A DNA stretch of 64,000 nt from Amoebophrya sp. A120 (GCA_905178155.1 CAJINV010000001.1:15376142-15440141); one strand, 5' to 3'; numbered from the stretch's first letter, positions 1 through 28,837 are shown. The notes: generated by a model from the sequence alone, not told the origin. Numbers and translations are program-made.

Positions 1-1
1 A

Positions 2-3000
2 AAAGAGGACAAGGTGGAAGAAAACAGTCAAGGGAGTAGCCTTCACAAAGCAGTTCTTGGGAGGTGCACCCCGCTGACCGACGCTACGACCAAAGAAGCG
101 TGTCGCAGTGAGCGGGAGGTGTCGATCGGGGCCAGCAGGGATAATCCGGACAACACGAACTTCTACCTGCGCAAGGGCATGACCCGGTGGGTGACGAAGC
201 GGCACTTGAAGTCGGGATACGACCCAGAGAAGGACCCGTGGGAGGCCAAGCTGTGGTGCGGAGACGACGAGTTGGGGCCCGTCTTGGATCCCTCACTCTA
301 CAAAGATATGCGGCACTCGAAGCAGTGGTTCGATCATATCAAGATCGGGTACAGCACTGACTCAGGTAAGGTGGAACTCACTCCGGTTCAGTGCGACCCC
401 GGCGGCTATAGGCTTTTGGGCTGCTACAAGGACAATGAGGATGACCGAATCTTGTTGGGACTGCAGCCGGCTCTCTCCGTGGGCCCGTACTCTCTGCGCG
501 AGTGCGCCTTCATTTGCAAAACCGGGAACGTGCAGCAGCGAGCGTTCGACCTCTTCGGGCTGCAGGACGGCAACCGGTGTTTCTGCGGTGTGCGCGAGGA
601 GCACGACTACACCCGGTTTGGGCCAGTAAGTGGGGAAAACGCGTGCAGCACCGAGTGCATGTACATCGACCCCTACGACCAGTCGGTCGGGAACACCTGT
701 GGTGGCCACCTTCAAATGTCGGTCTATGAGTTTGGGTGGCCGCTGCAGGAGCTGGGGTCGGAGAGCAACGAGTGCCGCGAGCTGACCGACGGCGCGACAA
801 TGGAGCGGTGCGCCTCGCGGCTCTGGGTGGCCTTCGGAAACGCTAACGGAAAGCAGGAAGGGAGCAAACGCGGCACAATCAAGTACGCGCGCAAGGAGAT
901 GAGGCGCACTTTCGTGAAGCGCGAGCTGGGGATGCTCGAGAACGAAGCGGGAGCGGTTCTGTACATGGGCTGCGGCACTGGAACGGGACAAGAAGGAGAA
1001 TTCCACAAAGACGGCCAGCACAACAAAAACGATATCATGAGGGTCCGTATGAACCCGGGAGATAAAGCGGGGGGGTTGAATCCGGCGAATTGGGTGCACT
1101 CGAATGTGTGGTACGACCACGTCATTGTGGACTACAAAACCGGGGGCGGCAAAGTGAACTTCACGCCCCTGCAGTGCGATCCTGGTGGCTACGAATACCT
1201 CGGCTGCTTCCAGGACCAGCGGGAGGATCCAGCAATGGGTGCCGACCATCCCGCCGTCACCAAGCCCCGCAGCGTGCGCGAGTGCGCCCACGACTGCCGG
1301 AAATATCTGCACTTTGCGCTTCGAAACCAGGATGAGTGCATCTGCGGGGGTGGCCTGAAGTCCTCCGCCGCTCCTGCCGCGTCTTCGTCTTTCCTTGACG
1401 AGGCAAGATCAAGAAAGAAGGCCACCATCACACATATGGTGGCAGAGCACGACAACCCAGCATTGGGCCGCGTCAGTCCGGGGCTGAAAAGCGATGACGT
1501 GGAGGATAAGTACGAGGAACCCGACGTTAACCCGCCAAGCTACGCCCGCCACGGGCCGGCCAAGCGGTCGGACTGCAGCAGCCCCTGCCTGGCTTCTGTG
1601 GGCGACGACTATGACCAAAGCGTGGGCAACATGTGCGGAGCCACGGACGGCGACAAAACCGTGACGCGAATCTCGGTGTACAAGTACGGGTGGCCGATGG
1701 CCGGACAGGACGGGTGCCTCAACCTACTGAACGAGACGCAGAAGGAGGGCGGCAGCACGATTTCCGCGGACGAAACCATGGAGCGGTGCCGAGGAGAGTA
1801 TGCCGTGCAGTTCGGCCGCGTGGATTCAGGCGCGGACGAGGAGACGAAAAAGAAAGAAAGGGCCGCGCTCCCCTGGATCCGCAAGGGCATGAAGCGGACG
1901 TTCGTAAAGCGCGAGCTCGGCGGGTTTACCGACGAAGGCTACCTGTTTTGCGGCAACGACGAGCTTCGCATGAAAATGCACCCAGAGATCAAGGGCGCCA
2001 GTGCGGGGGAAGTCGCTGGAGACATGTTCGCGGTGGGCGCCGCGGTGGGCGCCACTGTTGCGTTGGGGCCAGTGCTTGGCGCCGCAATAATGTACGGGCG
2101 GCAGCTATGGAAGTGTCAGGACTGAAATCGTCAGAGTTGAAATAGTTTGCCATGCATAAAATGCAACCCACAGAATGCCTGTCTTGCAGAGTAGGCAAGT
2201 GAGGCAGATTGTAAGCCTCTTGAGGGGTAGAAACTGAGCTGCTAAAGTAGCACGACAAAAGGCGTCTTCCTTACCCAAACAGCATGACAAACTGGATTTC
2301 GGTTCTACCCAAATTTGTCATGCGCCACTTCGAAACTCAAACTGGGCCACAACTTTCATCCATTTTATGCATTACAAGTCTTCAACTTTGTGGATTTCAG
2401 TCCTGACACATCCATAGCAGCCGAATCCAAATGACTGGACCCCGTCGAGGCTGTGGTACGATCACGTGGAGATAAACTACGAAGAGAAAACCGGCGAATT
2501 CCGGACGACACCACTCATGTGCGGCATCGAAGGCTACGAGCTATCTCATGCAAAATCGCCATCACATCAACATCATTGAAGTAAGTACTTAACTCAATAA
2601 TTATTTGCCCTGTGTGTGTACGGAGTACAAAGAAATGCATACAATAAAGCAGCATGACCAGAAGAGTTTCAGTCTGAGTATATATAAGCTTTGCATTGCG
2701 ATTTCGGGGACTTGATTGTGAAGGCGATTTTGGTTAGGATACGAGCTGCTGGGGTGCTACAACTTCTCACCCGGAGATGCCAAGCTGATGGAAACGATGG
2801 CGAGTAGCACGCATCAGAAACCCTTGTTCCGAAAAGTTTCCCCGATGCCAACGCAGCCGCGCTCCCCTCGTGAGTGTTCGCACGACTGCCGGCATTCGGG
2901 ATTCTTCTTTCTTGCAAACGGCGTAGAGTGCTACTGCGTAGACGACGACAGGCTGAAGAGCGAAGCGAACCTGTTGGTTCCCTGCATGCCCTTCCGGGGC

Positions 3001-6000
3001 AAGCAGCTTCCTCCGACGGAATGCTCGCTCGACCACTGCGCGTCGCAGGAGGCTCCCGGCTACGACAGCGCGAAAGGCAACACATGCGGGGGTAAGCCCG
3101 GAAAGAACACCGTGTCGCTCTACCGTCTTGGCTACCCTAAGAGTGAGGCGACAAGCGACATATCGAGATGAAAAATACCCCCTTCATCCCATACTCGTCC
3201 GAAAGAATGTCTGTGACGCTAACAATGTGTATCAATGAATCCACCAATCCCATCGATGCTCTGCCTTTTTGCAAAAGGGGAAGCAGAGTAGACGTATGTC
3301 ATGCTGAAGAACTACACTACTTCCACTTTTACGGCTCCTCACTCAGGCTGGGAATCTGACCACGCTGGTCTGTCTGTGCCTGGTCAGAAAGCGATGCGTG
3401 TTCGCAGAATAACGTCACTAGGCACGACCCTTGTGAGTATGGGCGGGAGAGATTTTTCTTCTTTTTGATACGACGGGTGCGAAAAACTGACAGACGCGCA
3501 TACGATGGAGCGATGCCGTGACCAGTTTGAAATCCGTTTCCAAAAGACCTACGTACGCAAGGGTATGACCCGTGTTCTCGTGAAGCGGCACGCGAACGTG
3601 AACATGCACCAGGAAGGGGAGATGCAATGCGGGGAGGACAAAATGAAGATTCGCATGGTGCCGGGCAGTGACGCGCTAACGTCAAATCCGCTGCGCACCT
3701 CGGAGCATGTGGAAGTGAACTACCTGGCGCAGGGGGGCCAGGTCCACTTCACGCCCCTGAAGTGCGACCAGGGCGTGACCCCGGAGTTTATCGGGTGCTA
3801 CCGCGACTCGTGGAAATATCCCGCCATGGTCGGGCGGCGACCGGTACCCAGGCGCTCGGTGCGCGAGTGCGCGCACGAATGTCGCGACTTCGGGTACTTT
3901 GGCCTGGGACCGGGCGGCCGGTGCTACTGCAGCGCACACCTGACGAACGAGGGTCCCGGGTGGACGGCGGAGCACGAGATTCCGATCGGACAAGCCCCCT
4001 CTAGGTTCGCGGACGAGTCCCTACCAAAACTGAGCGAGCTGAATTTGCAGGACGCTGCGGGTAACCGGCTTTCGGTGGGGGAGATGCTGCATGTGACGGA
4101 CCCTGCTTCCTCACCAGCAGGAACTAGTACTGCTGCCTCTTCCTTCTCGCAAACACCAAGCTCGCAAACAAGTTCGCTCCTCGAAAACAAGCAGTATCGC
4201 CAACAACAAGGCGGATCGGACCCGTTTCATTTAGCACCGGATTCGTCCTCCGAGGGAGACACGACCACGGATGCGACTGGCGCGCTGAACGAACCCGTCG
4301 TAACGGCCACAGCCGGGGAAGACGCGCCGATTCTGGCTGGCGGTCCGGAGGAATACGATTTTGATAAGTACGGCCGCGTGCCAGACCGGTTTTGCACGCA
4401 TCCGGACGCGGTCCGCGCCAACTGCGTGGACAGCTTCGACGGAAGAGCCAACTACAGCTGCGGCAGCAAGGAGGACTACGGGCCGTTACCCATAGACGTG
4501 GATTCGCTCAGCGTGCTCCTCGACCACCAAGAAAGGGTCGAAGAGTTTAACAAAGAGCAGGAGGAGGTGAAGCGGCTCGAAGAGCAGGAGGTGCGGAAGG
4601 CACAGGAAGTTGGCGCGGGGACAGCAGCAACAGGAACAACGCAAGTAGGGCAGACGTCTCCTCAAGTGCTAGAAGAAGGGCACTCGTTTACCCAACTGCG
4701 TGCGCGGGTCGCAGCGAGGAGCAAATTCGCAGCTGCGGAGGGCGACGCAGCAGTAGCCACCGACAAAGTCTTCAAAGGTAGAACGGAGGAGATGATAAAC
4801 AAAAACGTGCTGGATGAGGACGACGCTGCCATTCCCTCTCCTGGAAAGCCAGGTGAAGGTGTTCCGGAGGCCGCAAAGTCCAGCTCTGAAGATGAGGACT
4901 CAACCGCCACGTCGACGACGACCTGCACTTACGACATTTTTGCCGAGGAAAACGAGGACCATCTCCAATACATATCGGTCTACAAGAATGTCCACGGAGC
5001 GCCAGATGCGGACTGCGAGAACCTCGGGCACACCGCAGAGGCCTGCCGCGGCGAAGACCATGTGGACTTCAATTGGCTGGGGCTCCGCAAGGGCGAGCAC
5101 CGGGTGGTGGCCAAGCACACTTTGCGGTTCCTGGAGAAGCAGGGAGGCACGGTCACCTGCCACAACAGAACTGAGGGCTACACGCCGGAGCACGACCCGA
5201 GCTTCATGTTCGTGCGGATTCAGGGAGTAGGCGACTACGAGTGGGTCGGTTTGGACTACAATTGGGACACGAAAAAGGTGAACTTCAACGCCCTCAGCTG
5301 TCCAAAGCGAAAGCTGCCGCCGACATCGCCGCACCTCGATCCGGAGGGGTACCTCGGATGCACCAAACTCGCAGACACGATGGAGCGCTGCCGGGGCGAC
5401 AATAAGATCACCTTTTTCAGCGGCGAGGCGAGCAACTCCCAGTTTCCGGCGGTCACAGTGCGCAAGGGCGACTACAAAATTTTCGCCCGGTGGCGCCTCG
5501 GCGTGCTAGCCGAGAACGGGAGCACCGATATGGTTGGTATTATGAAATGTCAGGGAGAAGAGCTGACGATAAATTTGGATCCGGAGGGAGCCGCCCAGCA
5601 GCCGGCCAGTCCGGCGATGCAGACGTGGTATCACGTCGGAATTGACTACTGGCACGACGGCGGGAGAGTGAATTTCTACGCCCTGCAGTGCGTGAATACG
5701 GTCGATAACACAGGTCCGCCGCCAGAGTTTTCGTACTCGTCTGATGTGGCGCCGTTTGGCGCACCGGCGGACACTGAAAACCAAAACTCCTTCCTCTACA
5801 TCGTGTGCATAATCATCGGCTTCATCGTCCTACTCGCCGGAGTGGGCATGTGGGTCGTCTATTGTCGTCAGAGGAGGAATAGAGACCTGGAAATGGTAGA
5901 TGATGGGGAAGACGGTTGGTACCTGGATCCTCAAGAAAATCACGCTCTTGGGAGCTACAGCTACCACGATAGCAGTTGGGACGAAGTGCCCTTCTTGGAG

Positions 6001-6237
6001 CCCGGGAATAGCTATTATGAAACTTCTACGTACAACCCGTTTCACCAAAGCGACGCCCAAAGAGCTCAACAACAAGCCTTCTATAACGCCTCCTATGGAG
6101 CAGGAGGAGGCACTACTAAAGGCAAAGGGAAAATGACGAACCCAAACTACTACGGTACTGCATCGTATGGCGGCCGTCCAGGAGAGCGCCAAATCCCATC
6201 AGACGATGACACGTTCGACTTCTGCAGTATCATGTGA
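2..6237 (+). CDS. Large type I membrane/surface protein with 4 WSC domains alternating with 6 copies of an unnamed Cys-containing repeat; 5'-truncated; exons ~<2-2105, 2422-2541, 2747-3159, 3475-6237
   Basis: WSC-like motifs (YRLLGCYKD...SLRECAFIC...FGLQDGNRCFCG...C...C...CGG...SVY) occur 4 times. A TM helix FLYIVCIIIGFIVLLAGVGMWVVYC (~5791-5865) is followed by RQRR. ORFs 14..2125, 2788..3171 and 3505..6237 join in frame after three inverted-repeat inserts are removed, restoring the repeat consensus (WYDHVEINY...TPLMCG-IEGYELLGCY; SDGCEKLTDAHTMERC). Confidence 0.85.
2106..2416. mobile_element. TIR element acting as intron (introner) #1; TAT...ATA ends, 5-bp direct repeat GCAGC
   Basis: GCAGC at 2101-2105 and 2417-2421. 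Arms 2104-2129 and 2393-2418 are reverse complements at 25/26 positions, and weaker pairing continues to ~60 nt. Removing 316 nt gives YGRQ|PNPNDW in frame. Confidence 0.9.
2542..2741. mobile_element. TIR introner #2; TAT...ATA ends, 5-bp direct repeat CGAGC
   Basis: CGAGC at 2537-2541 and 2742-2746. CAAAATCGCCATCACATCAA (2551-2570) pairs with TTGATTGTGAAGGCGATTTTG (2712-2732). Removing 205 nt gives GYELLGCY, the start of a WSC domain. A GC-AG reading of the same length (2533-2737) is also possible. Confidence 0.85.
3161..3470. mobile_element. TIR introner #3; TAT...ATA ends, direct repeat CGACA/CGACG
   Basis: CGAC at 3156-3159 and 3471-3474. TATCGAGATGAAAAAT...CCCATACTC pairs with GAGTATGGG...ATTTTTCTTCTTTTTGATA. 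Removing 3160-3474 gives TSD|GCEKLTD. An in-frame TGA at 3466-3468 excludes upstream AG acceptors. Confidence 0.85.
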
Positions 6238-7227
6238 GAAAATTAAGCTTAAGACCACTGATCATGAACGTGAATGAGCATCTCTGGCTCTAAGGGTTTT
6301 AGGATTTAGGGCTTCTCCACAGTTGAGACAAGGAGCGTTCAAAAAAATAGGAATTCGAATGCCATTAGACAAGTCTAAGTCTCAAACGACGGACCGCAGT
6401 ACTAATACAGTACATCAACATGTCGACACAATTGCAAGAAGAATGTTAGCCGCTAGTGCCTTTCACGGTGCTACGCATCAATCCAAAAAGGCGGAAGACA
6501 AATCTCGTGTTCCCACCACTTTTGTAAAGAGAAAGTCATCTGAATCTGATTGTTCATCTTTATTTGCCCAGCGAGCTGCGCCGCTCGATGTGGCGTGATC
6601 GAGGTCGGCCCTCCTTTAGCTCTGGATCATGATGTAGTCGGGCCGCAAATCAAAATTATGGTGGAAGGAGTCCAGGAATTTGTACTCGATCTATGTACCG
6701 CAACACGAGCACGAGCAGCAATCATTCTTATACCACGGATTAAATTCAACTTCAACGAGCGTCAAGCAGGGCCCAGTGCAGGTTTTTTCTTCATGGGGCC
6801 TGGAAGACTTGCGAAGAGTCACTACTAAGCAGTATGGACAGTGTCAAGCATGTAGGTCAGGAAGTACCTTCTTCCTTCTCTGTGCATGATGTCTGTGTAA
6901 GTCTATAATTGCCACCAACAGCAACATCTTTTTCCCTCGTCCCTGTTGCAGCCACTTCCGTGAAAATGATGAACCCCCTTTTACCCTAAGGACACATGTG
7001 GATCCAGTACGTCTTGAATCTAGTTGTTACCTTTGTGTCCCCCGCCCCACATTTTGTCCGCATGCATGGAGCAAACAAACACTTAGACCACGATCCCTTT
7101 CTCATTGAGTATTTACTGTCACACAACGAAGAACAAGAACCCAACCGCAACCCCCAGGCTCAGTGTCTACTTAGCGATGAACGCGGGTAGCAGCGTACCC
7201 GTAGTTCTAGACCCCAGATGATACGAA

Positions 7228-10200
7228 ATGACAGTCGACCAAGAAGTTGAAAGCAACGAGATGGGAGCAGGTCGCAGGGGTCAAGGGGAGGATGCAAGTA
7301 GCTCCATGCACGTCGTGGATCAGGACGACTTTTTTGCGGAGCTGGAAGAAATGATCTTCCAAGAAGACGAAACGGAACCAGAACCGGCAAAAAACCGTGT
7401 CCGGCGAGCATCAGAAGAGGTGCAAGAACCTGAAAGAACCTCCCAAAGACGACAAATGGGCCAGCGCTTCGCCACACCAGGCAACTCTAGTTCGTCCTCA
7501 GCCCGCAGAAGTGCTTACGCAGATTTTCCACCAGGAAAGCTTGTCGAATCGAGTGTGAATAACTGTGCTCCTTCCGCCGGCAAGGGCAAAGCGTCTATGA
7601 GGACTTCATCACCAAAGAGTTCGAAAAGTCTCCATCCGATCGCCCCCTGCCTCGGTTCCGCGACGGGTAACAAAAGACGAAGAGAGCATAACCAGGAACA
7701 CGAGCTATTCTTGCGTCCGGTTCCGGTTGTAGATATGAACACGGCTTCGTCTAGCACACACGAGCCTTTCTGGGCGACGTTCGAAAAACCGACGAAGCGA
7801 CAAAAACGGGCTAGCGACAAGGTATTTTCCCCGAAGTCTGAGTGGTATCTACGAGAAGAACTGAGGTACACGCACAACTCGGGTATGTTGATTTCATCGG
7901 CCGCGGCTGGAACGACGAGATCTGCGGGGGAAGAGGCGACCTACAGCCAGGACGTGAACAAGACCCTGATCCGGGATGGTCTGTTTCACCCATCGTTGCC
8001 AGACCTGGTCGTCGCGCGGATCCTGGACTACGTTCCCTGGCAGAACTTGGTGCTTCGGGTGGCGCTGCTGAACAAGCGGGCGTATGCGCTGGTGTTCACT
8101 ACCGAAGAATTGTGGTACAACGCGTACTATCCTGTGCAAAAGTATCGCACTCGTCCTAATTGCAAATATGCATGACAAATGTTTTTCCCAAGGCAAAACA
8201 GCATTACAAATTCCACTTCCCTTTTTGGCAAAATTTGCAATGCAATTTCTACTAGTACGATAATTTTGCAATGCATACGTACAAGCAGTACTTTTCCCGC
8301 ATGTTCACCCGCCAAGTGATGGAGGGCGATTTCAAGGGCTGGACGCAGCGCGGCGTGCAGCTTTTGTCCCGGCGCGATGGCGTTTTTCCCTGTCTGCCGC
8401 CGCTGCGACAAGGGTACCTGCCGCAGCGGGAGGATCTTTGTAAAAACTCGTCCTGCTGGCTGCCGGATTGTGTGGCCGGCTTGTGGGCAGCCTCTTCGGC
8501 GACATCTTCGGGCACACACAATTTTAATGCGTCGAGTCAGAAGATAGATCGTGCGGTGGATCACCGGTTTCGCACAGTACAGGCGCCGCATCAAGGCCAT
8601 GGTACCTCAGAGACCGACTTGGCACGACGATTTACAAGTGGGAAGCGGGACGGGAAGAATTTGGTCGGTCTTTCATCTACTGCTGCCTCGGCTTCTCCTG
8701 CGAAGGTAGCCACCACGTCGTCAAACAGCCACCAGGAGGAAAAGAGAAACAATGAACCACGACCCGAGCAAAAGAAGAGAACACTGCTACCCTTCTGGTT
8801 TCTCTTCTTTCGCCATCTCTACCTCACCAAGGAAGTGGAGCGCGTGTCCAGCCAGGCCGAGGACTGGAAGGATTTTAGCACACTGATGCGGACGGTCGTC
8901 GCTGCCGAGGAGGGTGAAAATCTCAGAGGAGACCACTCAGTCTCCGGCGCGGCTACGGGAAACAAGCGAGCGCCGCGTACGATCGCAGACCTGCTGGATG
9001 CAGATGCTATCATCGAAGATTTTCAGCAGCAGGTGGTCAAAAACCGCACGAACCGCCTGGTCATGTGCACAAATAATGAAAAAACAGCGAATGGCAATGG
9101 TGCGACTTCTTCAGGGTCACCAGGGAGGACTACAGAGACAGTGACATCCACCGCTCCTGCGGTCAAGGTGGAGCGGGGGCAACTAGAAGTGAAACATGAT
9201 CGCAAAAGAAGCTTAGAGCAGGAGCTACCGGACGAGGGTAAGAGCAAAAAGACAAACTCCATGTCGCCGTCGCCCGCTGGTGCCTCAGTTTTTCCACCCT
9301 TCGGAGACGGTGTGTACGGGCTTTCGCTTCATGCTAAGGGATCTTCTGCACATCAAATTCCGCCAGCTGTATCAGCGGAGCCGACGGTGTCGGTTGTTCA
9401 GCCGAAGGACCTGAACGTCCCGACCTCGAGCAGTAGAGCAGGGCAGCACGCTGTGTCTGCACCCCCACCACCTCTGCATAAGACTCGGGCGAAAGAGGTT
9501 TCGCAGTCCCGCGCGCAGAAGCTGAAACTCCACACATTGCCAGATGAATTTTGGTGTCAGGCGGTGCCATTGGACAACGTCGGCAGGGACGATGAGGGCT
9601 CGGCGCAAGGAAAAACGGTGTCACAAACGACCAAATCTGAGCTAGGCCCGACGAGAGTGGTCACTGTTGACCGTACAACCACGCGTCGTTGGCACGTGTG
9701 GCAGAGCTTGTGGCACGGGCCCTGGCCGCGCACCGACAAACGAAAAACGCGGATCCTGGGGTGCGTGGAGTGCGGGTTTGTGCACCGGTGCCGCGAGAAC
9801 GAGCTGTGCGAGTTCACCGTCGAGGCGGACAGCCACACGCACGTGTGCGCGGTGTCCGGGGAGGTAAAAAGTCGCCGTTTAGTCGCGGAGCGGCCGGCGA
9901 ACAACGAGGACGCGTATTACGTCGACGACGAGTATCAAGTACCGCAGGAAATGTTCCCCAGAATAGCAGCCTACAACCCCAACTCGCAGCGGCACCAGCA
10001 GGAGCAGCAGCGTGGCGAGCAGCTAGGCGCGGGCCTCCGCGAAGATGACGTGCTTGTGGTGGAAGATGAGGAAGAGGAGGAGGCGGTCGAATCTCGCTTG
10101 GACCGAAAGCGCGTCGCTACGAGAACGCACATCCACGCCGGTGGTGTGCGGGAGCACCTGGTTTACTCCACGAGGCACGACAGGAACGACTTGTGCCTTC

Positions 10201-10241
10201 TGGAAGGCGACGACGTGGATGAGGAAATGAATCTGCTGTGA
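7228..10241 (+). CDS. F-box protein with C-terminal Cys/His (Herpes_UL92/SKIP31-like) domain; exons 7228-~8134, ~8272-10241
   Basis: F-box motif SLPDLVVARILDYVPWQNLVLRVALLNKRAYAL...ELW. The C-terminus has CVECGFVHRC...CEF...HVCAVSG. The two ORFs join after removal of a 137-nt inverted-repeat insert (YYPV|HTYKQYF). Confidence 0.75.
8135..8271. mobile_element. Inverted-repeat non-canonical intron #4 (TGCA direct repeat)
   Basis: TGCAAAAGTATCGCACTCGT...AATTGCA pairs with TGCAATT...ACTAGTACGATAATTTTGCA. TGCA occurs at 8135-8138 and 8272-8275. The 3' junction has no AG. Confidence 0.7.
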
Positions 10242-10873
10242 AGCTGAAACTGGCATGAAAAGTTGTGTAGGTCAACTGGGATTTCTTGGCAGTCTTCATA
10301 CATAACGAACGCAAAGGAAAATCAATCTCGTCACTTGCCGACACGACTAAGTCAAGAAAATTCCCAGCAACATCTTGAAGATCGAGGGCATGCCGCCCAG
10401 CGAGCACGCGGCACACGCAGCGCCTCACCTGTTTTTGATACGTGTTCGGAGGAACAATTTTCTGTATCTTACAACTAAAAGATCTCTGTCCCGGAGGACG
10501 AGGTGAAAAATATCACGCTAAAGCTTTGCGGGCACTTGTGCTAGATTCTTTGCGTGTAGTACCTCACGATGCAGTGAATCAACGTGCATGAATTTCCATC
10601 GGAAAAGGACGAAGACTTCAGCTGTGGTTTATCATTATTTCGAGAAAGAAGGTGCAGCTACGGTGTGACCGTGATCGTGAAGTAGTAGATCTTTCTGTTG
10701 AGAATAAAGCAAGCTGAGCAATCTAAGAACCGAAAGGCAAACTCCAGAACGAAAAAATCAAAATGTTGGACGAAAAGAATCTTACGGCGATCATTTTCTC
10801 GAGGCCTGTGCCTGCCTCCTAGGCTCTGCGTGTGCACGAAATTGGTGAACTGAAATCAGGACCCACGACCGTC

Positions 10874-11706
10874 ATGTCCCTGGTCGGAAAGTTGGCTGAG
10901 GCGTTCAGCGTCTTTGCGGGCAGTGCGCGGGCAAATCTTGATGGAGTAGATACGGATGCCGTCATTAGTAGTCGCGATGTGGTGAAGGAGGGATGGCTGA
11001 CGAAGCAATCAAGGAATGTTAAGGAATGGCGAAAAAGATACGTCGTGCTTACGAAAGATTGTACTTACGACTTGTTGATTATCTTTTGCTTGTGGGCATG
11101 CATTTCGTTGTGCTTGTGGTAGCTGCGTAGAAAGTGAGGTGAAATCATTAGAAATTGTTGCGTCTGTGTGGACGTCACGCAAAATTAGTGAGAATTTGCG
11201 TCTGTGTAGGTTGCACGCATGATTGATTCTTCTTTACTCCGAGCACTGCGTTTGCATTTCTCGGAGGTCCGCATTAAGTGGATGAATTCTTGAAACAGGC
11301 CTCGCAACTTTTCGAAACGGACCGCAGCAAGTGTACAAGTGTATCGAGGCAACAGAACTAGTTTTCTTCGGGCACATGATGACAGTGCGAAGCGCTGAGC
11401 AAGACACGGGCATGGATAACAGCTTCTGCATGCAGCGACAAAAGGATGCAAAGTTCTTCTATTTCATCGCCGAAACAGCAACTGAGAAAGAAGGTTGGGT
11501 CGGAGCGATAGGACGACAAATGGTACAAATGACCTGTATTTCTACCGAATCGTTTTTCTTTTTGACTATGTATATCTACTCGCTGGCTGAACCTGGAATA
11601 AACTTTGCCTTCCAACGAACGTGCGCGAGCCGTCTTCAGGAAAACCAAATCACACTTGCTTCAGGTGAGACGGACTGTCATGATAGATGAACAAGACGGG
11701 GACTGA
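10874..11706 (+). CDS. Small PH-domain protein; GT-AG introns 11061-11298 and 11523-11664
   Basis: VVKEGWLTKQSRNVKEWRKRYVVLTKDC|LATF...FYFIAETATEKEGWVGAIGRQM|VRRTVMIDEQDGD*. These are classic PH beta1/beta2 strands and the C-terminal Trp helix. Both introns keep the frame. Confidence 0.9.
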
Positions 11707-12603
11707 CAGCATGGGTTCATACATTTTATTCGCCTAAGTACTCTTTCTGTCCCTGAGACTAAGGCTGGTACAAAACACCCGCGCCTGCACTTTCATTATC
11801 ATGATCTCTCGAGAAGTTTTTGTTTTCAGTTTTCTGCAACCAATTAATTTGAGCTGCGCGAACATTACACGGACACAAGTCAAATGAAGTGTCTTGGCTC
11901 ATGATCTTGAGGAGCGTTATTTGCTGTGCGGACAGCCTGACAAGACGAGAAGCTCAAGCGGCATATTGTTCGGAATTTCAGTGGTGCCTTTGTCCAAGTG
12001 AAATAGGTGAGGTGGCTGGAGTTGTCAGACATAGCTTTTGTTTGTCTGTGGAATAACGATAATTGTATGACGAAGATAGGATTGTTGATCATGTTGTAGT
12101 TGTGTCCGCTTCGAAGCCCGCCCGTCGAAGTTCTGTTTGAGGTTGATCATTATATATTTTGATTTTCGCGGAAATTTTTTGTGCAAAATTCTTGGATCGA
12201 TCGTTATTGTATGTAGTGTCATTTCCGAAGCAAGAGATCCTGAAAGAGATCGCTATCCGCATATTGATTTTTTTCGGTGGAAATGATGGCGTTGCTGTTG
12301 CAGCAGATGTTGAGTGTTGTGGTTTCCTTTTCCGATTTGTGGAGATCTGTATCTTATTTCGCTCTTGAGACCTCATACATAGAACGCCCGTTTTCACATA
12401 TTGTTTTTCGCAGTTATTTTTTGATTTTGAGGCGTTGAGAGACCCTTTTGGCTTGTCGCAGCAGTATCTAATCTTAGTAATATTTTCCCTAACTTTATTG
12501 TTTGTTTTTGCTGACTCATCCACCCACGGCTTTTGCCCTTGCTCTCAAGAGGAAGACGGGCACGGCGACCTTTCCTCATCTCATTTTTTTGCACATTTAC
12601 ACC

Positions 12604-14062
12604 ATGCTCCCTTCAGTTTTGCACCAGGCCCCGCCGGCGCGGTTTCAGAAACTTGTTCAGGCGGTGGAGCAGTTGGCGCCGCCGAGTTTGGCGGAAGGTT
12701 GGGACAATGTCGGACTGCTGCTGGACTGTCTAGACGAAACTAGATGGAGCGAATCTTCCTTCAAGCCAAGAATATTCCTCTGCAACGACTTGACCGAACG
12801 CGTTGCGGAGGAGGCAATTACCAAAAAGGTCGACTGCGTTGTCACCTATCACCCCACACCGTTCGCGAAGTTTAGAACCGTTACGCGAACGACGCACATT
12901 GGTCGTGTTGTGCTATCTATGGTACAACAACTTGTATATTGATTTACACGACAGAGCTCTTGTTCTTAGCTTCCTTTTTCTTCCACACCTTCAATAGCGC
13001 GCTCGGAATCAATTCTTTTTCTTCCACAGCGTCACACTGAACGACGTCGATGACCCATCAGAAACGCATGGTGGATGTTCTTCTGTCACAACTACTGTCT
13101 TGCAACCACAAAATAAACGCAGATAACGAACCGTATCCCGGTCTACGCAACGCACACCTGCCTGGACTGTGTCAACAACGGGTTGAATGATTGGCTCATC
13201 AACGCGTTTCCCAATGTCGGAGAGATTCTTCCGTGCAACCCACTAGATGCGAAGCGACCAAACCTCGGCTCCGGCCGCGTTGGAAGTTTGCCCATGGCAA
13301 TCACAATCGACGACGCCGTCGGCCACGTCAAGACACTCACAGGGCTCAAGCATGTCCGCAGAGCCGACCCAGTCGATGGTGCATTTTTTTTATAACAGTT
13401 TTTCACTGCTTCTGGTTCTGTCTGGCAACTTTTTGTAGAGGAAATTTATTTTGTTTTTTAGGTGGGTGAGCAACGGCAAACAAGTTCCCTCGCACGGTTG
13501 CCATGTTGTCATTCATGTCTACTTCAATACGGACCGAACGCAAATCAGGCTCGCAGAAACCAATCCGAAGAGTCGCTGTTTGTGCGGGGTCGGGCGGCAG
13601 TGTGTTTAAGGATTACACTATCCAATGTAAAAGCGTACCTATCTTCCCTACTTCATCCTCGCGATACAGATTATTTGCATGCCCATGACGTGGGTCATGC
13701 GTGCCCCTGTGGCACCCATTTTGTAATCGCGTTTGGAAATTTCTTATGCTGTAATCAGAAAAAGAGAGCGCAAGCGGGTTTGTGCTGCGGATAGATTAGT
13801 TGATTGTGGGGTCGGTACGTTTTTACTCAGGAGATAAATGAGCAAAAATCCGGGAAGCGTGCCCGATCTTTTTCTCACCGGCGAGATGTCACACCATGAT
13901 GTGCTGGAGCTGAACCAAAATGGCGCCTTCGTCATCCTCACCGAGCATTCCAACAGCGAGCGACCCTTTCTCCCCGTGTTTCGCGAACGTCTGTTGGGCC
14001 TCTACCCCGACGCAGAAGTCGTGATCAGCGAAATAGACGCGGATCCCTTGTTTGTGGCGTAG
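12604..14062 (+). CDS. NIF3: NIF3/YbgI (DUF34) family protein; introns 12922-13122 (GT-AG), 13379-13548 (GT-AG), ~13617-13840 (non-canonical)
   Basis: Motifs LAEGWDNVGLL, VVTYHPTPF, VYATHTCLD...GLNDWL, RVAVCAGSGGSV, DLFLTGEMSHHDVL, ILTEHSNSERPFL and ISEIDADPL. Confidence 0.92.
13617..13840. mobile_element. Degenerate inverted-repeat non-canonical intron #5 (boundaries approximate)
   Basis: TATCCAATGTAAAAGCGTACC (13619-13639) pairs with GGTACGTTTTTACTCAGGAGATA (13814-13836). An in-frame TAA at 13835-13837 forces the acceptor downstream. I found no phase-compatible GT/GC-AG pair and no clean direct repeat. Confidence 0.6.
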
Positions 14063-14575
14063 ATTAAAAATGTTGAGTTGCACAGTCAGTGCACTGAAGC
14101 CAACAGCAAACCGGGATTGATTTCTTGTACTCAACATGATTTTACCGACGCACGAACAAGCCTACATTTATACGCATCATAGTCATACATGGATGAATCT
14201 AACTTGGGAATAGAGAACTTTTCGGAACGAACAAAAGTCCATGTACTAAAGCAGCTCAATCCACCACGCGATACATGTGTATAACGCCATAGCAGTGCAA
14301 ATTGCGTTGTGCCGATGTGCATCGAGATTTTCTATCTGGGTTTGCACTTGACTGTATCAGTCTTTTTACAGGTCGCGCCCTTGTTCCTGTCATCGCGTTG
14401 TCGTTGCAGTTTCGTTTTTCAAATTCACTCATGTGCACTCGTTCCGACGCAGTAGCAGAGTCTGTTGACATTTTTGTTTCTCAGGCCGTAGGTGGGTGTG
14501 CAGCAGCCAGTAGAAGGTTGCCGATCGTCCAAGTGAGTCCAGCCGAGGCAAAAAGTGGATCAGAAAAGTGAAAAA

Positions 14576-17401
14576 ATGGCAAAGCACGGACTGGAGATGA
14601 TTGCGTTCGCTCTGCAACTTGCCACTTGCTTCTTGCTGCTGCCGACCGATGCCTACGACTCGTGTCGGGCCGACGAGCATGCGGGGTCCGTGCTCACAGA
14701 ACTCCTTGCACCGTACTGGGAGTTTATCCGACCCGGCCCTGAGGCGCAGAAGGAACTTGCGCACGCCGAGTCTGTCGGCGTCAAACTCAGATGGCTCGTG
14801 GAAAAGGCGCTAGAGAAGCGAATACCCAGGGGTCGCGGCATTCCCTGGCCGGAGGAGCGAGCAATCATGCTACGAAACCGGGGGCTTATGGGAGAAGGCG
14901 AAGCGGGCATGGTCGTACCACGGAACAAGGAAGGGACTTCTGGCGGCAGACCTTTGGTTTCTTCAGATCCGCGCAGAGAAAATGCGGAGAGAGAGGCCTG
15001 GTTGGTTACAAACGAAGATGTGGCTTGTGCGTTTCATGAGGGCATCGCCCTTCAGCAGCTGTGCGAGACGGTGTAATGTGTTTTTCAGTACGAAGCTTTG
15101 AGCTCGTTGCGACTCTATCATGAGTACTAATCAATACGTACATACAACGTCATCTTCATTAATTATATCGATTGTGGTGCTTCATCTGCATCGGGAATGT
15201 TGCTGACTTTGAAACCTTCGTCAGGTCTACAACTTCTTCAATGCGCACATTGGGCCGTTCATGGAGCAAAATCGCTGTGGCAACCTAGACGCAAGTTCTT
15301 GCAACATCGAGCCCTTTATTCAGAAGTTGACAACCAGCCGTGTTCTGGGTGACGCGTTGCGTGATTTCGTGGAGTCTTGGGTACAAAGTTCAAAAAGCTT
15401 CGAAGAACTGGTGGCGCAAGACTACAGCACGGAGTCATCGGCTGCCGCACCCCCGGCAGAGATTTTCTCGGACGCCAAACGGTTGGAGCGTATCCAAAGC
15501 CGGCTACTAGACGAAAATTTGCTTCTCGCCGCGGGCAGCACCACCACTGCAGAGACGATTGCAGGAAAAACAAGCAAAACGCTTCTAGAGGATGTTGACG
15601 GCGGTAGAAGTAGTAGAGAAGCAGCAGCACAAGAAGTGCGCGACATTCTTGCAGGCTCGGATGTCTCGGAATTGCGGGACACGGACCTGGAGGGCGAACT
15701 AGTGCAGCACGATTTGCTCCTTTTGCCGCGGCTGGAAGATCAATCCGAAGCCAAAACAAATCCAACGGGGGAGACAAAACAAGGGACAGATCATGCCAGT
15801 AGTTTCGCAGAATTGTCACCTTTTTCGTCGCGAAAAAAACAACTTACGAGCCCCTACCAGTGCCCTCGGTTTCTGAATATGCACCTGGATCTCATCGCCC
15901 AGGGCTCAAACGGGCACTGGATTTTGCAGACTTTGCGCGACTACGAGTCCGTCGACGATCGGTTCCAGCTTCAGCACCGTTTTCGACACTGGATGAACGG
16001 GTTTCTGGAGGCACGGGAGAAGCTGCTGCAGATTATCAAAGTCAAAAAAGCCCCCACCCCATATCGGACACGAAATTTGTGATGCTGTATTTGAGTACAC
16101 AAATCGACTTGTATTGCTAGAAGGCCAAGAGACGCAGCTGCGGCCTGAATTGCAGGCAATCTGTCATGCTGTTTCCCACTTCCAGTTGCCTCCTGTCATG
16201 CTGGAGCTGCAAGCCTTTCCCACGCTAGGCAGCACTACAGTCCGCATCTTTTGCCTTCTAGCATCACAAAGCCACAAATCTGCATCACAGATTTCCGTTT
16301 TGATATGGGGAGGGGGCATTTTTCCTCACAATGCAGATCTGGAAAATGAGGAAGGACATCACCGGGATGCTCGCGCCGCACCGACAGTACAAGTCCATGG
16401 ACGACTTTCGCGACTTTTCCCAAATCGACTGGAACTGGCTACGGCTACCGAACTCGTGGTCGTTGGACCGAGGGCTGAAACGGTGGAACGTCGTTTGCGC
16501 CTTGGTGGAGCAAGCCGTGTGGGAAAAATTTCGCGTCTGGCGCGGGACGGAGTACACCGACGCAAAAAGTAGAACTTCGAAAGGACGATTTTCGCAGAAG
16601 AACGTGATCCACGTGGCGGAAATCGGCGTCTTCGTCGGCGAGACGTCACTGTATTTGCTCAGCCGCTGTTTTCGGCACCTCTACCGAGAGTCGAATATCC
16701 TGGTCCAGTACCATCTCATCGACCCGTGGGAAGTGGATGCATTCGGCGGCTTTCTCGACTTCTATCGTGCGACCAAGGGCTACACGGAGCAAACCGGGCA
16801 CGACGTGTATCGAAATTTAGTGCAGAAGCTCGGGAATGCAACCAGTTTGTATGAAACCAGCGACAACGAGGACGTCGCAGGGACCACGCCGGAAGGAACA
16901 TCAACAAGCAAGGTAGCGGAAGATGAGATTTCGACGGTTGCGGGAGAGGAGCAACGCACGAACTCCGCGCTTTGTTTGAAAAAAAGAATTAACCACGAGC
17001 GCTCCCCCGTTCCGCTTTTCGAGGTCAAGTATCGCGACCTCCACGGGAAAGAAATGTGCGCGGGAGAAAAGATTCCGGAAAATAGGCCGGGCGTGTTCTT
17101 CCACCGGGTCTTTTCGCACCAGGCGAGCAAGAGGCTAAGTGTCCTCGATGTCCTTTATGTGGACGGGGAGCACAGTTTTCACGGCGTGCACACGGATCTG
17201 AAGCACTTCGTGCCCCTCACACGGTACGTGGTCGCGGGGCACGACTTTGACTACTACAAATTTCCGGGGGTCACCATGGCCGTGTTGAACGCCAAAGTGC
17301 CTACCACGGACGCGTTCCGGCAGTACGGATTCAGGTTTCAACAAGAACTCTACCTCGACTCTGATACCACTTGGTGGAGTCGACTGAATAGAATGAAATA
17401 A
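14576..17401 (+). CDS. Signal-peptide class I SAM-dependent methyltransferase (Methyltransf_24-like), paralogue A; introns 15071-15224 (GT-AG) and ~16032-16336 (introner)
   Basis: Hydrophobic N-terminus IAFALQLATCFLLLPTDA. Motifs VAEIGVFVGETS, YHLIDPW, LDVLYVDGEHSFHGVHTDL and VVAGHDF. It is colinear with paralogue B. Confidence 0.82.
16034..16333. mobile_element. TIR introner #6; TAT...ATG ends, 5-bp direct repeat CAGAT; absent from paralogue B
   Basis: CAGAT at 16029-16033 and 16334-16338. AAAAAAGCCCCCACCCCATATCGGACACGAAATTTGTGATGC pairs with GCATCACAGATTTCCGTTTTGATATGGGGAGGGGGCATTTTT. Removal gives KLLQIWKMRK, matching the uninterrupted KLIQIWKMRK at ~19608-19637. Confidence 0.9.
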
Positions 17402-17820
17402 AAAAAAGACGACGTCTTGATGCTCTATCTAAAAAAAATAAGACATTCGAGAACGGATTGGACTTCGCAAAAAGACGAAGGAAATAACGCGCGAACCGAT
17501 GACGGCCATGGCTATGCGTAATACATGGTTTATCAAGAAACCATGTGTGAATGTGATTCATCATCTGAAGTTTCTGCTTTCCACTCCTCCCGCAGTGACT
17601 CTCAAACAATACGATCGGATTTTCGAACAACTCCTTCGTGAGTGCTGACTCTGCGTCGTCGTGTTGTCGTGTTGTAAGAGCCACGCAAAAAAACGACACC
17701 GTTCAGGTTTTGCTGGCAAAACAAAGAAAAACAAAGCACGCGCAGGACTAAGGCGACTAGAAACCCTCTGAGCCTTTACTTCATGTTGTTGGGTTCTACT
17801 TCTACGTTTCATCGCTCTCT

Positions 17821-20800
17821 ATGGCTGCTTTAGATGAAAAATCCAAAATGGCGACTCGCAGACACCACTTGGCTGCTGCACCTTCGACGGCTAATATGAG
17901 CGTCAAGCTTCTTTCCGCCGTATTCCTATCTGTTCTGATGAATTCGTTCTGGCCATCCACGACGACCTGGAAGGTGATGATTTCTGCGTCGAGATCATTT
18001 CCGTTCGACTCGTGTCGAGGGGATCTACATGCGGGCGCAGTTCTGACGGAGCTGCTCGCGCCCTACTGGGAGTTCATCCGACCCGGGCCTGAAGCTGCGA
18101 GAGACCTCGCACATGCGGACTCAGTCGGGGTGAAGCTAAAATGGCTGATCGACAAAGCCCTGGAATATTCCTTGAAAATTTTTACCATCCTAATCCAATT
18201 TGTCATGCTAAACATGGACGAGATCGAGAAAGAGAATCGGCTTTTGTGGTGCCAAAAACGGATGGGGATGGTAAAATTTCAGGGAATATGGAAAAGCGCA
18301 TCCCATGAGGTCGTGGCATTCCATGGCCGGAGGAGAGAGCGGTAATGCTTCGAAATCGCGCTAATCGCGAGCGAACTGGAGATCCAGTTCCAGGGGATCC
18401 TGGGGTTGGTGGAAACAGCAGGGAAAGTAGTACACCAAAGGCGACATCCAGACATCAAGCCGACGGGACTAAAGATGGCAAAATTACCGTAGTGGCCCCC
18501 GCAAGAAGTATGTCCGGACTACTTGTCAGCTCAGATCCTTCACCAAGTAGAGAAGTTGCTGCACAGAAGGAGTCCTGGCTCGTGACGAATGAGGACGTGG
18601 CGTGTGCTTTTCATGAAGGAATCGCCATTGAGCAGCTGTGCGAGACGGTGTAATGTCTTTTCAAATTTTATTGATTATTCGAATCGATCGACTTCACGCT
18701 GAAGCTACAAAAGCAACATGAATGCTTGAAGAAAAGGTGCTATAGATTATAAGAACAGCGGAATCGCTCTTCTTTTCTGTTTACCTTTACCTGCGGTGAT
18801 TTTTTTCCTCGATTTTTTTATCAGGTCTACGACTTCTTCCGTGTACACATAGGCCCCTTCATGGAGGAGCACAGATGTCCGCTGTTAGACTCGAACTCTT
18901 GCAAGATCGAGCTCTTCGTCGAGAAGCTGGCGGAGAGCCGTGTCCTGGGCGACGCATTGCATGGCTTCGTGGAATCTTGGTTGACAGCAGCAACGAAGGT
19001 TGAAAGAGCTGCAGCGAAATTACAGGTAGAAGGCAGCGACGTCAGCAGTGCGTCCGAGTCCGACAGAAACAGTACGATGGCAGGTGGCGAACGCCTGAAG
19101 CGCATTCAGAGCATGTTATTAGACGGAGACCTGGCCCAGTCGCGCAAGCGAAGTACTAAGGAAAGAGAACGACCTCCCGAGGATGCATTGGTCGACCACG
19201 TGGCAGCTGAAGCTGTTATCGCACTTTTCGCGAGTAAAGCGGACGGCGCAGAATTGCGAGCCGCGGAGCTGGAGACGCAGTTGCCACAGCACTACGGGCT
19301 TGTCGCTCTCGATGAACCAAAAACAGTACCACTGGGGGAAAATGAACAACTAAGGCGGGTATCATCAAATGAAGACCTCACACCTCGAGCTCCTTCCAAG
19401 CAGCTTGCTGCAACCCGGCTCTTTTCCCACCAGTGTCGTCATTTTCTGAACATGCACCTAGATCTCATCCAGCAGGGCGCCAATGGACACTGGATGTTGC
19501 AAAGCCTGCGCGAGGAGGACCCGTACGACGAGTCGAGGGACAAAGAACGGCTTCAGCTCGAGCATCGTTTTCGTGACTGGATGAACGGGTTTGTGGACGC
19601 GCGGGACAAGCTGATACAGATTTGGAAGATGCGCAAAGACGTCGTCGGGATGATGGCTCCGGACCGCGAGAACTACTATCCTTTGACGGAGAAAAACCGC
19701 GACTTTTCCCAAATCGACTGGAACTGGTTCCGGCTGCCGAACTCCTGGTCGGTGGACCGGGAGATGAAGAGGTGGAACGTCGTTTGCGGCCTCGTGGAAC
19801 AAACTGTCTGGGAAAAATTTCGCGTGTGGCCGCGGCGGGGTACAAGATCACCGCACCGTTATAACAGCACCGCGTTTCGCCCAAGACGAGCGAAGGCTGC
19901 GAAACAGGCTAGTACAATGGGGCCCCCGAAGGTTATCCACATAGCGGAGATTGGCGTGTTCGTCGGCGAAACTTCGCTGTACTTGCTCAGCCGGTGCTTT
20001 TTGCGCCTCTATCAAGAGTCGAATGTCCTCGTGCAGTACCACCTGATTGACCCCTGGCAGTCGAACACTTTCGGCGGGTGGAACCCCTGGGAAGTCAAAA
20101 GCTGGCTCCTCGATTTCTATCGCGCGACGCGGGGAGACACGGCGAAAATGACGGGGAGCGACGTGTACAGAACCCTCATGCGGAGAGTCGGGAACGCCAC
20201 GACCTTGTATGGGGATCGTCGTTACGGGGACGCACCCGCAGCGCCAGAGGCTCTCGGAAGGCCGCCCACAGGACGAACGAGAGGGGGCTCTGATGCTACG
20301 CTGAGGAGTGCTTCTGTTGCCGATGGCACCGGCGGTGGCGGTACAGCCGCGAGCTTTGCCTCGGCGTTAGCCGGAAATAAGGAGATGTCCTCTGCGACGC
20401 CGTGTCTGCGGAAGAAAATTCACTCCAGGAAATCTCCACTTGCTGTGTACGAAGTTCAGTATCACGACCTCCACGGACGGAGCGCGTTGTGCGGTGTGTC
20501 CGAAATAAAGATTCCGGAAAATCTGCCAGGCGTATTCTTCCATCGCGTCCTTTCGCACAGGGCAATAGAGCGGATAAGTGTCCTAGATCTGCTTTACATA
20601 GACGGGGATCACAGCTTTGCTGCCGTGCATGCCGACCTCCGAAACTTTGTGCCGATTACGCGGCATGTGGTCGCTGGGCACGACTTTGACTACTACAAGT
20701 TCCCAGGAGTTTCGATGGCTGTTATGAACGCCAAAGTGCCCACGACGGACGCTTTTCGGCACTTCGGGTTCAGATTTCAGCAAGACCTCTACCTCGACTC

Positions 20801-20843
20801 AGACAATACTTGGTGGAGTCGATTAACCTCTATGCCTGAATAG
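17821..20843 (+). CDS. Signal-peptide SAM methyltransferase paralogue B; introner 18166-18293, GT-AG intron 18648-18824; in-frame TGA at 18306-18308 (possible pseudogene or null allele)
   Basis: It has the same motifs as paralogue A (IAEIGVFVGETS, LDLLYIDGDHSF, VAGHDF) and shares the canonical intron at CET|VY. The spliced frame reads KALEKRIP*GRGIPWPEER versus KALEKRIPRGRGIPWPEER in A. The start codon is uncertain (17821, 17848 or 17896). Confidence 0.75.
18166..18288. mobile_element. TIR introner #7; TAT...ATA ends, 5-bp direct repeat TGGAA; absent from paralogue A
   Basis: TGGAA at 18161-18165 and 18289-18293. TATTCCTTGAAAATTTTTACCATCCTAATCC pairs with GGATGGGGATGGTAAAATTTCAGGGAATA. Removing 128 nt gives KALEKRIP, identical to paralogue A (14803-14827). 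Confidence 0.92.
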
Positions 20844-27250: not shown

Positions 27251-28837
27251 ATGTTCGGATTCGGGGGCAGTAACAGCGGTGGTGCGTTCGCCGCCCAATT
27301 CGGTGGAGGCAACGGTGGCTCCACCGACCAGCAGCAGTCGCAGAATTTTTTTGGCAGTGGCGTGGTAGCGCAACCCGGCGGCCTACAGGGCGGCGGTGGC
27401 TTTTTGCACGGTACACCGACACAAGACGCAACGGGCGGCGAGCAGGCAGGTGGTGGTGCGCGGACAGGCGGTGGCAACGCCGGTGGGAATACCGGGGATC
27501 AGATAAGTCGAAAAACAACGTCGGTGTCCTGCTACCAAGTGCACCAGATGGTCAGCGAGAACATGAAAAACGGCTCTGACGCCACACTCAAGCTCTACGG
27601 GGAGGAGGTACGTGTACAGTTATAGAAAAGAAGTAGTCGTGTGAACGTGAAGACTAAGCTCAAAAAACAAATAACTCTGCGCTGGTGCAAATGAGGGAAG
27701 GGACATAACTCCTGGTAAGCTTTTAGTTTTTTGATGTTTTTTCTGCCAACGCGTTGGCCTGTGCTTCTTCCCAACCGCGACCTACAGAGGCGCATCTAGT
27801 ATATGTTTTCGTGCGAACACTCCCGCAATTCTATTTCTAATACATACGTCGCTCCTCACTTCCAGGTGCAATACTTGGCTCTGACGGGCGTAATACGGAA
27901 GTGCAACAACGAAGAACGAGACATGGACACGGCTTTGGAGATTTTTCTGGATGACCAGACCGCGGTCGTCAAAGTGCGCAAGTATTTCGATGGGACCAGC
28001 GAGCACGAGGCAGCGCTACACGAGTATACAACAAAGCATATTTTGATGATTTGGCAGACTAAAGTAGATTCTCACTCTCGATCTCGTTTCGATTTCGCCT
28101 ATGGATGGAGTATAATTACTTCTGCCCAGAGGTGAGCTTCACTTTCTCTCTAGCAAAGCAAATACTTGTTCGCCAAACCAAAGAACCTTCACAACAGCTC
28201 TCTCGCCCCGTCCATGATGATTCGTGTAGTTGGAACGGTGCGGATGCACGGTAGCATGTTTTGGCTAGCCGCGATTAAGCTCGAAAAGTTGTCAGAGCTT
28301 GGGCAGATGTATGCCGACGCTATGACTCAGTATCGGCTCCTGCAGAAGTACATGATGAAGAGACAGGAAGAACTCGCACAGCAGGGCCAGCTACAACAAC
28401 CAGGAGCGGCCGGCGCTGTTATTAATGCTGGAGGCCAGCACCAGCAACCATTAACTGTAGGTAGCAACAATCTCGTTTCTGGTGGCCTTCCCCCTTCTGC
28501 CGCTGCCGGGCACCCCGCCGGCGGGTCTGGGCTGCCGCAGATGAATGTCGTGAACATGATGGCGCAGCAGCGGCAGCAGGCGCAAATGCAGCAGCAAATG
28601 CAGCAACAACACGGAACGTTGTCGGGCACGCAGCTCCGCGACGGCATCTTGCGTGTTTTGCGGGACGGCACCAAGGACATCGAAAAGCCGGACGGACTGA
28701 CACTAGACGATATCACCGCGCAACTGGGCGCCGGTGCCGACAAGCAGGAAGTGGCGCGATTTGTGCAGGACCTCTGCAACGACGGACAGATTTTCACTGG
28801 CGACACGGATGACAGGTATCTTCCCTCAGACTGCTGA
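27251..28837 (+). CDS. RPA2: Replication protein A 32-kDa subunit-like; GT-AG introns 27608-27865 and 28024-28197
   Basis: Gly-rich N-terminus (GGGGFL), an OB fold (VQYLALTGVIR...FLDDQTAVVKVRKY...IRVVGTVR), a Q-rich linker and a C-terminal winged helix (GLTLDDI...LCNDGQIFTGDTDDRY). Confidence 0.85.

Follow-up and report, generated by a model that had tools for sequence, protein, structure and literature searches.

The DNA analysed here, called the window throughout, is a stretch of 64,000 nucleotides (nt) from Amoebophrya sp. A120 (GCA_905178155.1 CAJINV010000001.1:15376142-15440141), and our subject is a set of six short inserts that interrupt coding sequence in its first part. The inserts, numbered as elements 1 to 6, are hosted by gene 1, gene 2 and the paralogous genes A and B, all read from the plus strand (Table 1). 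Five had been described in an initial annotation of the window, and their coordinates and flanking repeats were all confirmed; the same scan for repeats and termini added a sixth, element 4 (8128–8277).

Table 1. Inserts, host genes and related features of the window, with positions counted from its first letter and strand in brackets; motif copies are those of GTCATGC.
Feature	Coordinates	Length	Span with repeats	Repeats and ends	Motif copies	Remarks
Element 1	2106–2416 (+)	311 bp		GCAGC at 2101–2105 and 2417–2421, perfect 5-bp repeat; TAT...ATA	2282 (−), 2317 (+), degenerate 2250 (−)	
Element 2	2542–2741 (+)	200 bp	2537–2746	CGAGC, perfect; TAT...ATA	2652 (−)	
Element 3	3161–3470 (+)	310 bp	3156–3475	CGACA/CGACG (4/5 match)	3298 (+)	
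Element 4	8128–8277 (+)	150 bp	8123–8282	CGTAC	8170 (−)	
Element 5	16034–16333 (+)	300 bp	16029–16338	CAGAT, perfect; right end decayed to ATG	16163 (+), 16195 (+), spacing 32 bp	
Element 6	18166–18288 (+)	123 bp	18161–18293	TGGAA, perfect; TAT...ATA	18202 (+)	
Candidate seventh, decayed element	13619–13836 (+)			TAT...ATA ends; weak inverted repeat; no 5-bp repeat		In NIF3 gene
Gene 1	2–6237 (+)					5′ end beyond window; WSC-domain protein of internal repeats; hosts elements 1–3
Gene 2	7222–10241 (+)					No Pfam family; hosts element 4
Gene A	14576–17401 (+)					Methyltransf_24 domain; ordinary GT-AG intron (about 15071–15224) and element 5
Gene B	17821–20843 (+)					Gene A paralogue; element 6, ordinary GT-AG intron 18648–18824, premature stop
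Premature TGA	18306–18308 (+)					In gene B; fifth codon past second repeat of element 6

The inserts are built to a common plan, in which a direct repeat of 5 base pairs (bp) flanks an element that opens with TAT and closes with ATA and that carries inverted repeats of 8–20 nt or more at both ends, the outer end of element 5 being decayed. The initial annotation had assigned the 5-bp repeat and the TAT...ATA ends to all five of its inserts. Both are perfect in those at 2106, 2542 and 18166, whereas the repeat at 3161 agrees in four of five letters and the insert at 16034 ends in ATG, as had been remarked. Across the six window elements the repeat is perfect in five and matches in 4/5 letters in the remaining one, TAT begins 11 of the 12 termini, and GC content is 0.35–0.48 in the inserts versus 0.55–0.62 in their flanks. 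The layout was scored with a filter that allowed at most one repeat mismatch and required TAT...ATA, a length of 40–1000 and a terminal score of at least 18, with 100 block-shuffled windows as control. This filter gave five matches in the window, element 5 lying outside it, while 93 of the 100 shuffled windows gave none and 7 gave one; the layout exceeds chance. An unbiased repeat scan without the TAT requirement returned 37 matches, with elements 1, 4 and 2 in the top five. Since shuffles returned 15–23 matches to that scan, with best scores of 14–15 of 20, it is weak as a filter by itself, and its other matches were dropped as being at shuffle level.

The initial annotation had cited the inverted-repeat/direct-repeat introners of Amoebophrya as a comparison; the window is itself from Amoebophrya, and the layout is the published A120 signature. 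In A120, introner ends reportedly read TAT, then seven variable bases, then at least three A, and the direct repeats measure 3–5 nt (Farhat et al. 2021, PMC7789003). The same paper gives a mean length of 240 nt and names a 5-bp example in the legend of Fig. S19, and its intron set rests on mapped RNA sequencing (RNA-seq) reads (PMC7789003). The inserts are A120-type introner elements, already published as a class, and these very copies have very probably been published as well. What they share with the class is the Amoebophrya host, ends that are mostly TAT followed by seven bases and an A-run, short direct repeats, the absence of GT-AG, a predicted hairpin, repetition and a similar size. The host genus is also reflected in a piece of a DDX47 helicase gene at the window end, whose closest named homologue belongs to Amoebophrya sp. 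A25, at 89%, with all further matches at 80% or below. The terminus pattern, with an A-run of at least three, occurs at 7 of the 12 termini, on 5 of the 6 elements, and has 26 other matches in the window. Unlike the 3–5 nt range of PMC7789003, the six elements here point to a uniform repeat of 5 bp, and the accessible text of that paper reports neither a shared internal motif nor an orientation test, both of which are taken up below.

Deleting each element together with one copy of its repeat leaves reading frames of 1800 codons in gene 1, 955 in gene 2 and 790 in gene A, each with only its terminal stop, and a retained insert reaches a stop within 16 codons in 5 of the 6 elements. The six cut registers within the repeats of each element, 36 in total, give GT-AG, GC-AG or GA-AG in none and AT-AC in one, of element 3. 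This bears out the earlier observation that no position within the direct repeats offers GT-AG, and it separates the elements from U2-type introns, whose GT/GC/GA-AG ends are found in none of the 36 registers.

To compare the window with sequencing data, 11 runs were listed and 4 were compared with positions 1–20000; the RNA nature of one of these, X3, is inferred and is not on record. Run X1 is DNA-like, with a depth mostly flat near 27 outside the repeats and contigs that cross elements 2, 3 and 6 intact. Over elements 1, 4 and 5 its summed contig depth exceeds 10,000, a figure that stems from many related contigs and is not a copy number, and at 92% likeness elements 2, 3 and 6 show little depth excess; the elements are repeated in the genome. 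Run X3 is transcript-like, covering genes unevenly, with no coverage at 12007–16008, and its contigs cover genes 1 and 2, gene 2 by one contig. One X3 contig runs directly from 8122 into 8278, a path that has the full depth of the contig, and skips the 155 bases of element 4 plus one repeat; five letters at the joint are ambiguous. In X1 this joint has no depth, and the DNA contigs keep element 4.

For element 3, the match of an X3 contig starts at 3471 and shows no differing letters, and this contig carries 213 further letters that are unplaced, while the X3 depth of the bin is 13.9 against 13.88 expected with no coverage at 3336–3470; element 3 appears to be removed from the message. Since this contig keeps the last base of the downstream repeat of element 3, the 5′ cut would fall at least one base before TAT, provided that the contig is joined to the upstream exon; elements with imperfect repeats, such as this one, constrain the cut position. 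Runs X3–X5 hold 0.80–0.82 of the sampled words of positions 1–6000, where 0.85 is expected if elements 1–3 are removed, and X1–X2 hold 0.98–0.99. Removal from RNA without GT-AG, as first proposed for the five inserts, has thus gained a precise joint for the insert at 8128, which was not among them, together with indirect RNA support for elements 1–3, from the contig at 3161 and the gene-wide word fraction; among the joints listed, none was seen for 2106, 2542, 16034 and 18166.

The same runs bear on whether the inserts leave the DNA and not the RNA. In ciliates, internal eliminated sequences are excised at the DNA level, and a similar excision in some cells or at some stage, with X3 being DNA or RNA from such cells, could account for the X3 joint; in its favour, the RNA nature of that run is only a guess and contigs drop rare variants. 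Against it stand the elements that X1 spans intact, the lack of X1 depth for the 8122→8278 joint, and the way in which X3 coverage follows genes. We consider DNA-level excision extremely improbable.

Gene B differs from the other host genes. Deletion had been said to restore both the frame and the conserved residues; on deletion of element 6 the frame returns but the protein does not, as an in-frame TGA (18306–18308) stands where gene A has an Arg codon. The X1 DNA contig agrees with the window letters at this TGA, the database protein P0001 begins downstream of it, and the gene has X3 coverage, though low, at 17859–18117 and 19630–19916. Gene B, one of the host genes, looks dead; possible readings are a pseudogene that is still transcribed, or a start further downstream. 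In the neighbouring gene A, the stretch 17205–17383 is also placed further along by an X1 contig, as expected of tandem paralogues. The premature stop beside element 6 makes it plausible for gene B, and for gene B only, that an insert killed its host. As an account of the inserts in general this is very improbable, with genes 1, 2 and A having no other break and genes 1 and 2 being covered by transcript-like contigs.

A further possibility is that the ordinary spliceosome removes some inserts through nearby GT/GC/GA-AG pairs. Pairs of this kind that keep the frame occur near all six elements, and the initial annotation had itself listed such sites. For element 4, however, the GT-AG pair of equal length at 8134–8288 is excluded, as it is not the pair used by the contig joint. 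For element 5, exact removal agrees with the intron-less paralogue, while the GT-AG alternative adds three residues; more generally, the alternative pairs at elements 5 and 6 add or remove residues relative to the paralogue, and the GT-AG option at element 1 meets a stop. Use of nearby pairs is in our view improbable, though element 2, where such a pair gives the same protein, is discussed further below. Protein searches for spliced products were also made: that with gene 1 exon 3 found no match among 94 candidates (proteins of at most 2000 amino acids), and that with gene A exon 3 found as its sole match the window's own gene B product.

Fold energies were compared with those of 60 shuffles per element. 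Four of the six elements fold far better than their shuffles (z −3.5 to −8.4); the values noted for single elements are z −7.8 for element 1, −3.0 for element 4 and −5.8 for element 6. The predicted structure pairs the two ends in 5 of the 6, placing the repeats side by side. Such a geometry can also mislead an experiment, since reverse transcriptase could jump the hairpin between the direct repeats, in which case the junctions would be artefacts and the RNA would keep the inserts or be spliced elsewhere. Hairpins between direct repeats have yielded false introns in complementary DNA (cDNA), in up to 70% of reads, that are absent from direct RNA sequencing (PMC8240250); the element 4 junction is probably cDNA-derived, and the introns of Farhat et al. 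come from mapped RNA-seq. Yet the flanking frames are intact for 790–1800 codons, although retention would bring a stop within 16 codons at five of the six inserts. Gene 1 holds three inserts, and an independent contig described below holds two in one frame; element 4, moreover, folds only moderately, yet its joined form is the contig's main path. Since long intact frames surround several inserts, we argue that removal is real, and such an artefact is quite improbable.

Apart from the layout, the elements share an internal motif. Their arms and cores had been thought unrelated, and whole-element pairwise alignment scores are indeed at or little above shuffled maxima, but the cores of all six carry GTCATGC. 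Eight of the 12 matches to this word in the window fall within the elements' 1394 bases, which make up 2.2% of bases, and neither 2000 shuffles nor 2000 random window sets ever produced a 7-mer common to all six. Around the motif the sequence frequently reads TTTGTCATGCT, and at 2253 and 16161 the majority variants in other copies shift towards the motif. The host genes are all on the plus strand; elements 3, 5 and 6 carry the motif on that strand, elements 2 and 4 on the minus strand and element 1 on both. Elements 1 and 5, like a relative of element 1, have paired copies at a spacing of 32 bases. The box is about 87–173 bases from the 3′ end, in the hairpin loop. Matches at 177, 48832 and 54283 were set aside, as none of them falls within an element that has matching ends and a 5-bp repeat. 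Searches of the Amoebophrya, introner and transposon literature for the motif gave no introner paper among the titles listed, and the main text of PMC7789003 is without 'CATG', though its logos (Fig. S19–S25) could show the motif; the internal box looks new for A120 introners.

The relative of element 1 comes from a metagenome scan with a 15-base arm word, which returned 120 loci from 7 of the 64 parts of the collection. Among these only one contig, L021, is a true relative, the rest matching over at most 20 bases. It contains a full-length relative of element 1 (78%) in other flanks and a second complete element of 240 bp from another family, each with its own perfect 5-bp repeat and each with the GTCATGC motif, and deleting both opens one stop-free frame of 210 codons. 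These data support the view that the inserts are non-autonomous elements bounded by terminal inverted repeats and flanked by 5-bp target duplications. GTCATGC occurs in 11 of the 120 loci, so that one match in a 1-kb stretch is no rarity; when the paired-motif pattern was used to scan the metagenomes, no stretch matched. The last 45 bases of L021, on its minus strand, open a third element, again of the 240-bp family, that is truncated by the contig end; this makes three insertions in 1.2 kb of one frame.

Element 4, with the motif on the minus strand, is removed, and element 3, with the motif on the plus strand, appears to be removed, which favours symmetric signals; removal seems to be orientation-blind.

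The transposase had been described at first as an unsettled matter, but a candidate type has already been proposed in print. A120 family 38 has Copia/Gypsy-like frames between inverted ends; it is listed in the supplement as Ginger, with '5-bp TSD, TA/TA Termini' (TSD, target-site duplication), and described in the main text as being without the expected Ginger termini and TSDs (Gozashti et al. 2025, PMC12130899). Likened by description only, family 38 is similar to the window elements in its 5-bp TSD and TA/TA termini and unlike them in size, at about 810 bp against non-coding lengths of 123–311 bp. Ginger elements have TGTNR termini and mostly 4-bp duplications, although TDD-4/5 make 5 bp (PMC2836005); the elements here begin with TAT in place of TGTNR, and their 5-bp duplication fits TDD-4/5 only. 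GingerRoot elements have TA...TA termini, as found here, with duplications of 6 bp (PMC6839031) instead of 5 bp. The window elements thus resemble Ginger-type miniature inverted-repeat transposable elements (MITEs) in their working, but fall outside both Ginger and GingerRoot; no transposase or long copy was seen here.

Outside Amoebophrya, the nearest parallel in form is with the nonconventional introns of euglenids, which carry an N3CDG 5′ signature in Euglena and are released as circles (PMC11282704; PMC12501133). The likeness lies in inverted repeats that pair the ends, junction repeats resembling TSDs, the absence of GT-AG, ordinary introns alongside and a probable MITE origin; in contrast, N3CDG is found in none of the 36 registers, the lineage is distant, and circular products have been shown there. 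The introners of Micromonas, Aureococcus and Polarella are similarly non-autonomous elements with terminal inverted repeats that create introns by insertion, but those of Aureococcus keep canonical splice sites, whereas the window elements have none.

We strongly favour the interpretation that the inserts are short, non-coding, TAT-ended and 5-bp-flanked introners of the A120 type, which would enter genes by integrase-like insertion and leave the pre-mRNA by hairpin-guided removal. The mechanism we propose takes as its first step the observed layout, host genus, repetition, frames left intact by removal and the single exact joint found in a transcript-like contig. In a second step, the flanking repeats would very probably be target duplications created by the insertion event, as a relative of element 1 that sits in different flanks is bordered by a 5-bp repeat of its own. 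As for the enzyme of the third step, we lean slightly, by analogy, towards a DDE transposase of the kind related to long-terminal-repeat (LTR) integrases, similar to those of Ginger and GingerRoot, because of the 5-bp duplications and TA termini and because of the family 38 proposal. The fourth step concerns the internal TGTCATGC box: its occurrence in either orientation and its fixed 32-bp spacing make it reasonably likely that the box is a double-stranded DNA binding site, read by the transposase or a helper.

In the fifth step, it is likely from the predicted folds that the terminal stem, and not splice-site letters, guides removal, with a cut at the same offset in both repeats restoring the exon; Farhat et al. 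also infer structure-guided removal (PMC7789003). For the sixth step, a cut-and-join reaction without a lariat, modelled on euglenid nonconventional introns, would have about an even chance, and we prefer it to a U2/U6 spliceosome without U1, which we place somewhat short of that. A more specific form of the latter, in which the stem of a modified major spliceosome's substrate replaces 5′ splice-site recognition in the absence of U1 and the box may serve as the branch site, is unlikely, although it has several points in its favour. Ordinary GT-AG introns in the same genes indicate that the spliceosome works here, and, measured against the usual branch-site pattern, the box offers a U-n-A-y run that can be read on either strand. 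That likeness was judged by eye and is weak, however, and the position of the box, well upstream of the 3′ end, in a hairpin loop and in both orientations, does not suit a branch site; nor do the 36 registers show a common dinucleotide at either end. As to the machinery, U2, U4, U5 and U6 have been detected in A120 but U1 has not (Farhat et al. 2021, PMC7789003), and a review reports that in Fritillaria non-canonical introns derived from MITEs are spliced by the U2 spliceosome.

Several observations weigh against hairpin-guided removal of A120-type introners as an account of all six inserts. Elements 2 (z −0.95) and 3 (z −1.3) fold no better than their shuffles, and in element 5 the outer 15 bases stay apart in the predicted structure, which weakens a strict model of a stem at the junction. 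Unlike the published A120 introners, element 1 is without the A-run of the terminus pattern. A direct junction is available for one element of six (element 4), among the joints listed, and it comes from a single contig, in a run that is only guessed to be RNA. For element 2, the equal-length GC-AG pair 2533–2737 yields an identical protein, so protein evidence cannot decide between the two routes, and the premature stop in gene B means that splicing of element 6 is not required. The motif, finally, was found post hoc on six elements and checked on two more, one of them a relative of element 1.

Some further features of the window concern the history of these elements. A seventh, decayed element may lie at 13619–13836, where two opposed motif-like copies occur near 13684–13700 and the depth of DNA contigs is raised in the bin; it is flanked by the frame-keeping GT-AG pairs 13604–13842 and 13604–13857. 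Another stretch, 9933–10304, was dropped as an element, because it starts in frame within gene 2, is devoid of the motif and is read through by an X3 contig. At element 5, the decayed right end stretches the direct repeat to seven bases (16027–16033 and 16332–16338) and leaves an AG at 16335–16336, which could possibly be a step towards an ordinary acceptor. Recognisable elements are confined to the first 19 kb; no element combining matching ends with a 5-bp repeat was found in the remaining 45 kb (21000–64000), which holds several long single frames and GT-AG introns. At 28050–28087, inside an apparent ordinary intron of a gene that we take to be RPA2-like, a 39-base stretch is 82% like the core of element 6 and may be a relic or a chance likeness.

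Element lengths are multiples of 10 in five of eight cases, counting six from the window and two from L021 (200, 310, 150, 300 and 240; the rest are 311, 123 and 307). The binomial chance of this excess is about 0.0004, for a pattern noted post hoc in a small set, and lengths in tens could reflect helical phasing of end synapsis. Some DNA contigs run from the end of an element of one family into the start of an element of another across 30–40 bases, and some begin like element 3 and go on like element 5; both patterns suggest that elements lie close together elsewhere in the genome and that arms are shared or hybrid.

The shared box links families that do not align with one another, and offers a probe for the mobilising protein. 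Because the box gives each element a polarity, it also provides a genome-wide test of whether splicing ignores orientation; orientation-blind splicing is predicted by a symmetric hairpin mechanism and not by the ordinary spliceosome. More speculatively, the hundreds of A120 introner families, unrelated as they seem, may form one system, with TAT termini, a 5-bp duplication and a TGTCATGC box at 32-bp spacing in either orientation, in which one integrase-like transposase would read the box and a hairpin-guided, non-lariat reaction would remove the elements regardless of orientation. If this were true, every coding insertion would be harmless, and the box would serve both as bait for the transposase and as an element to mutate in a splicing reporter. 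Together, the box and the polarity that it confers make the removal of tens of thousands of Amoebophrya introns without splice-site letters easier to test.

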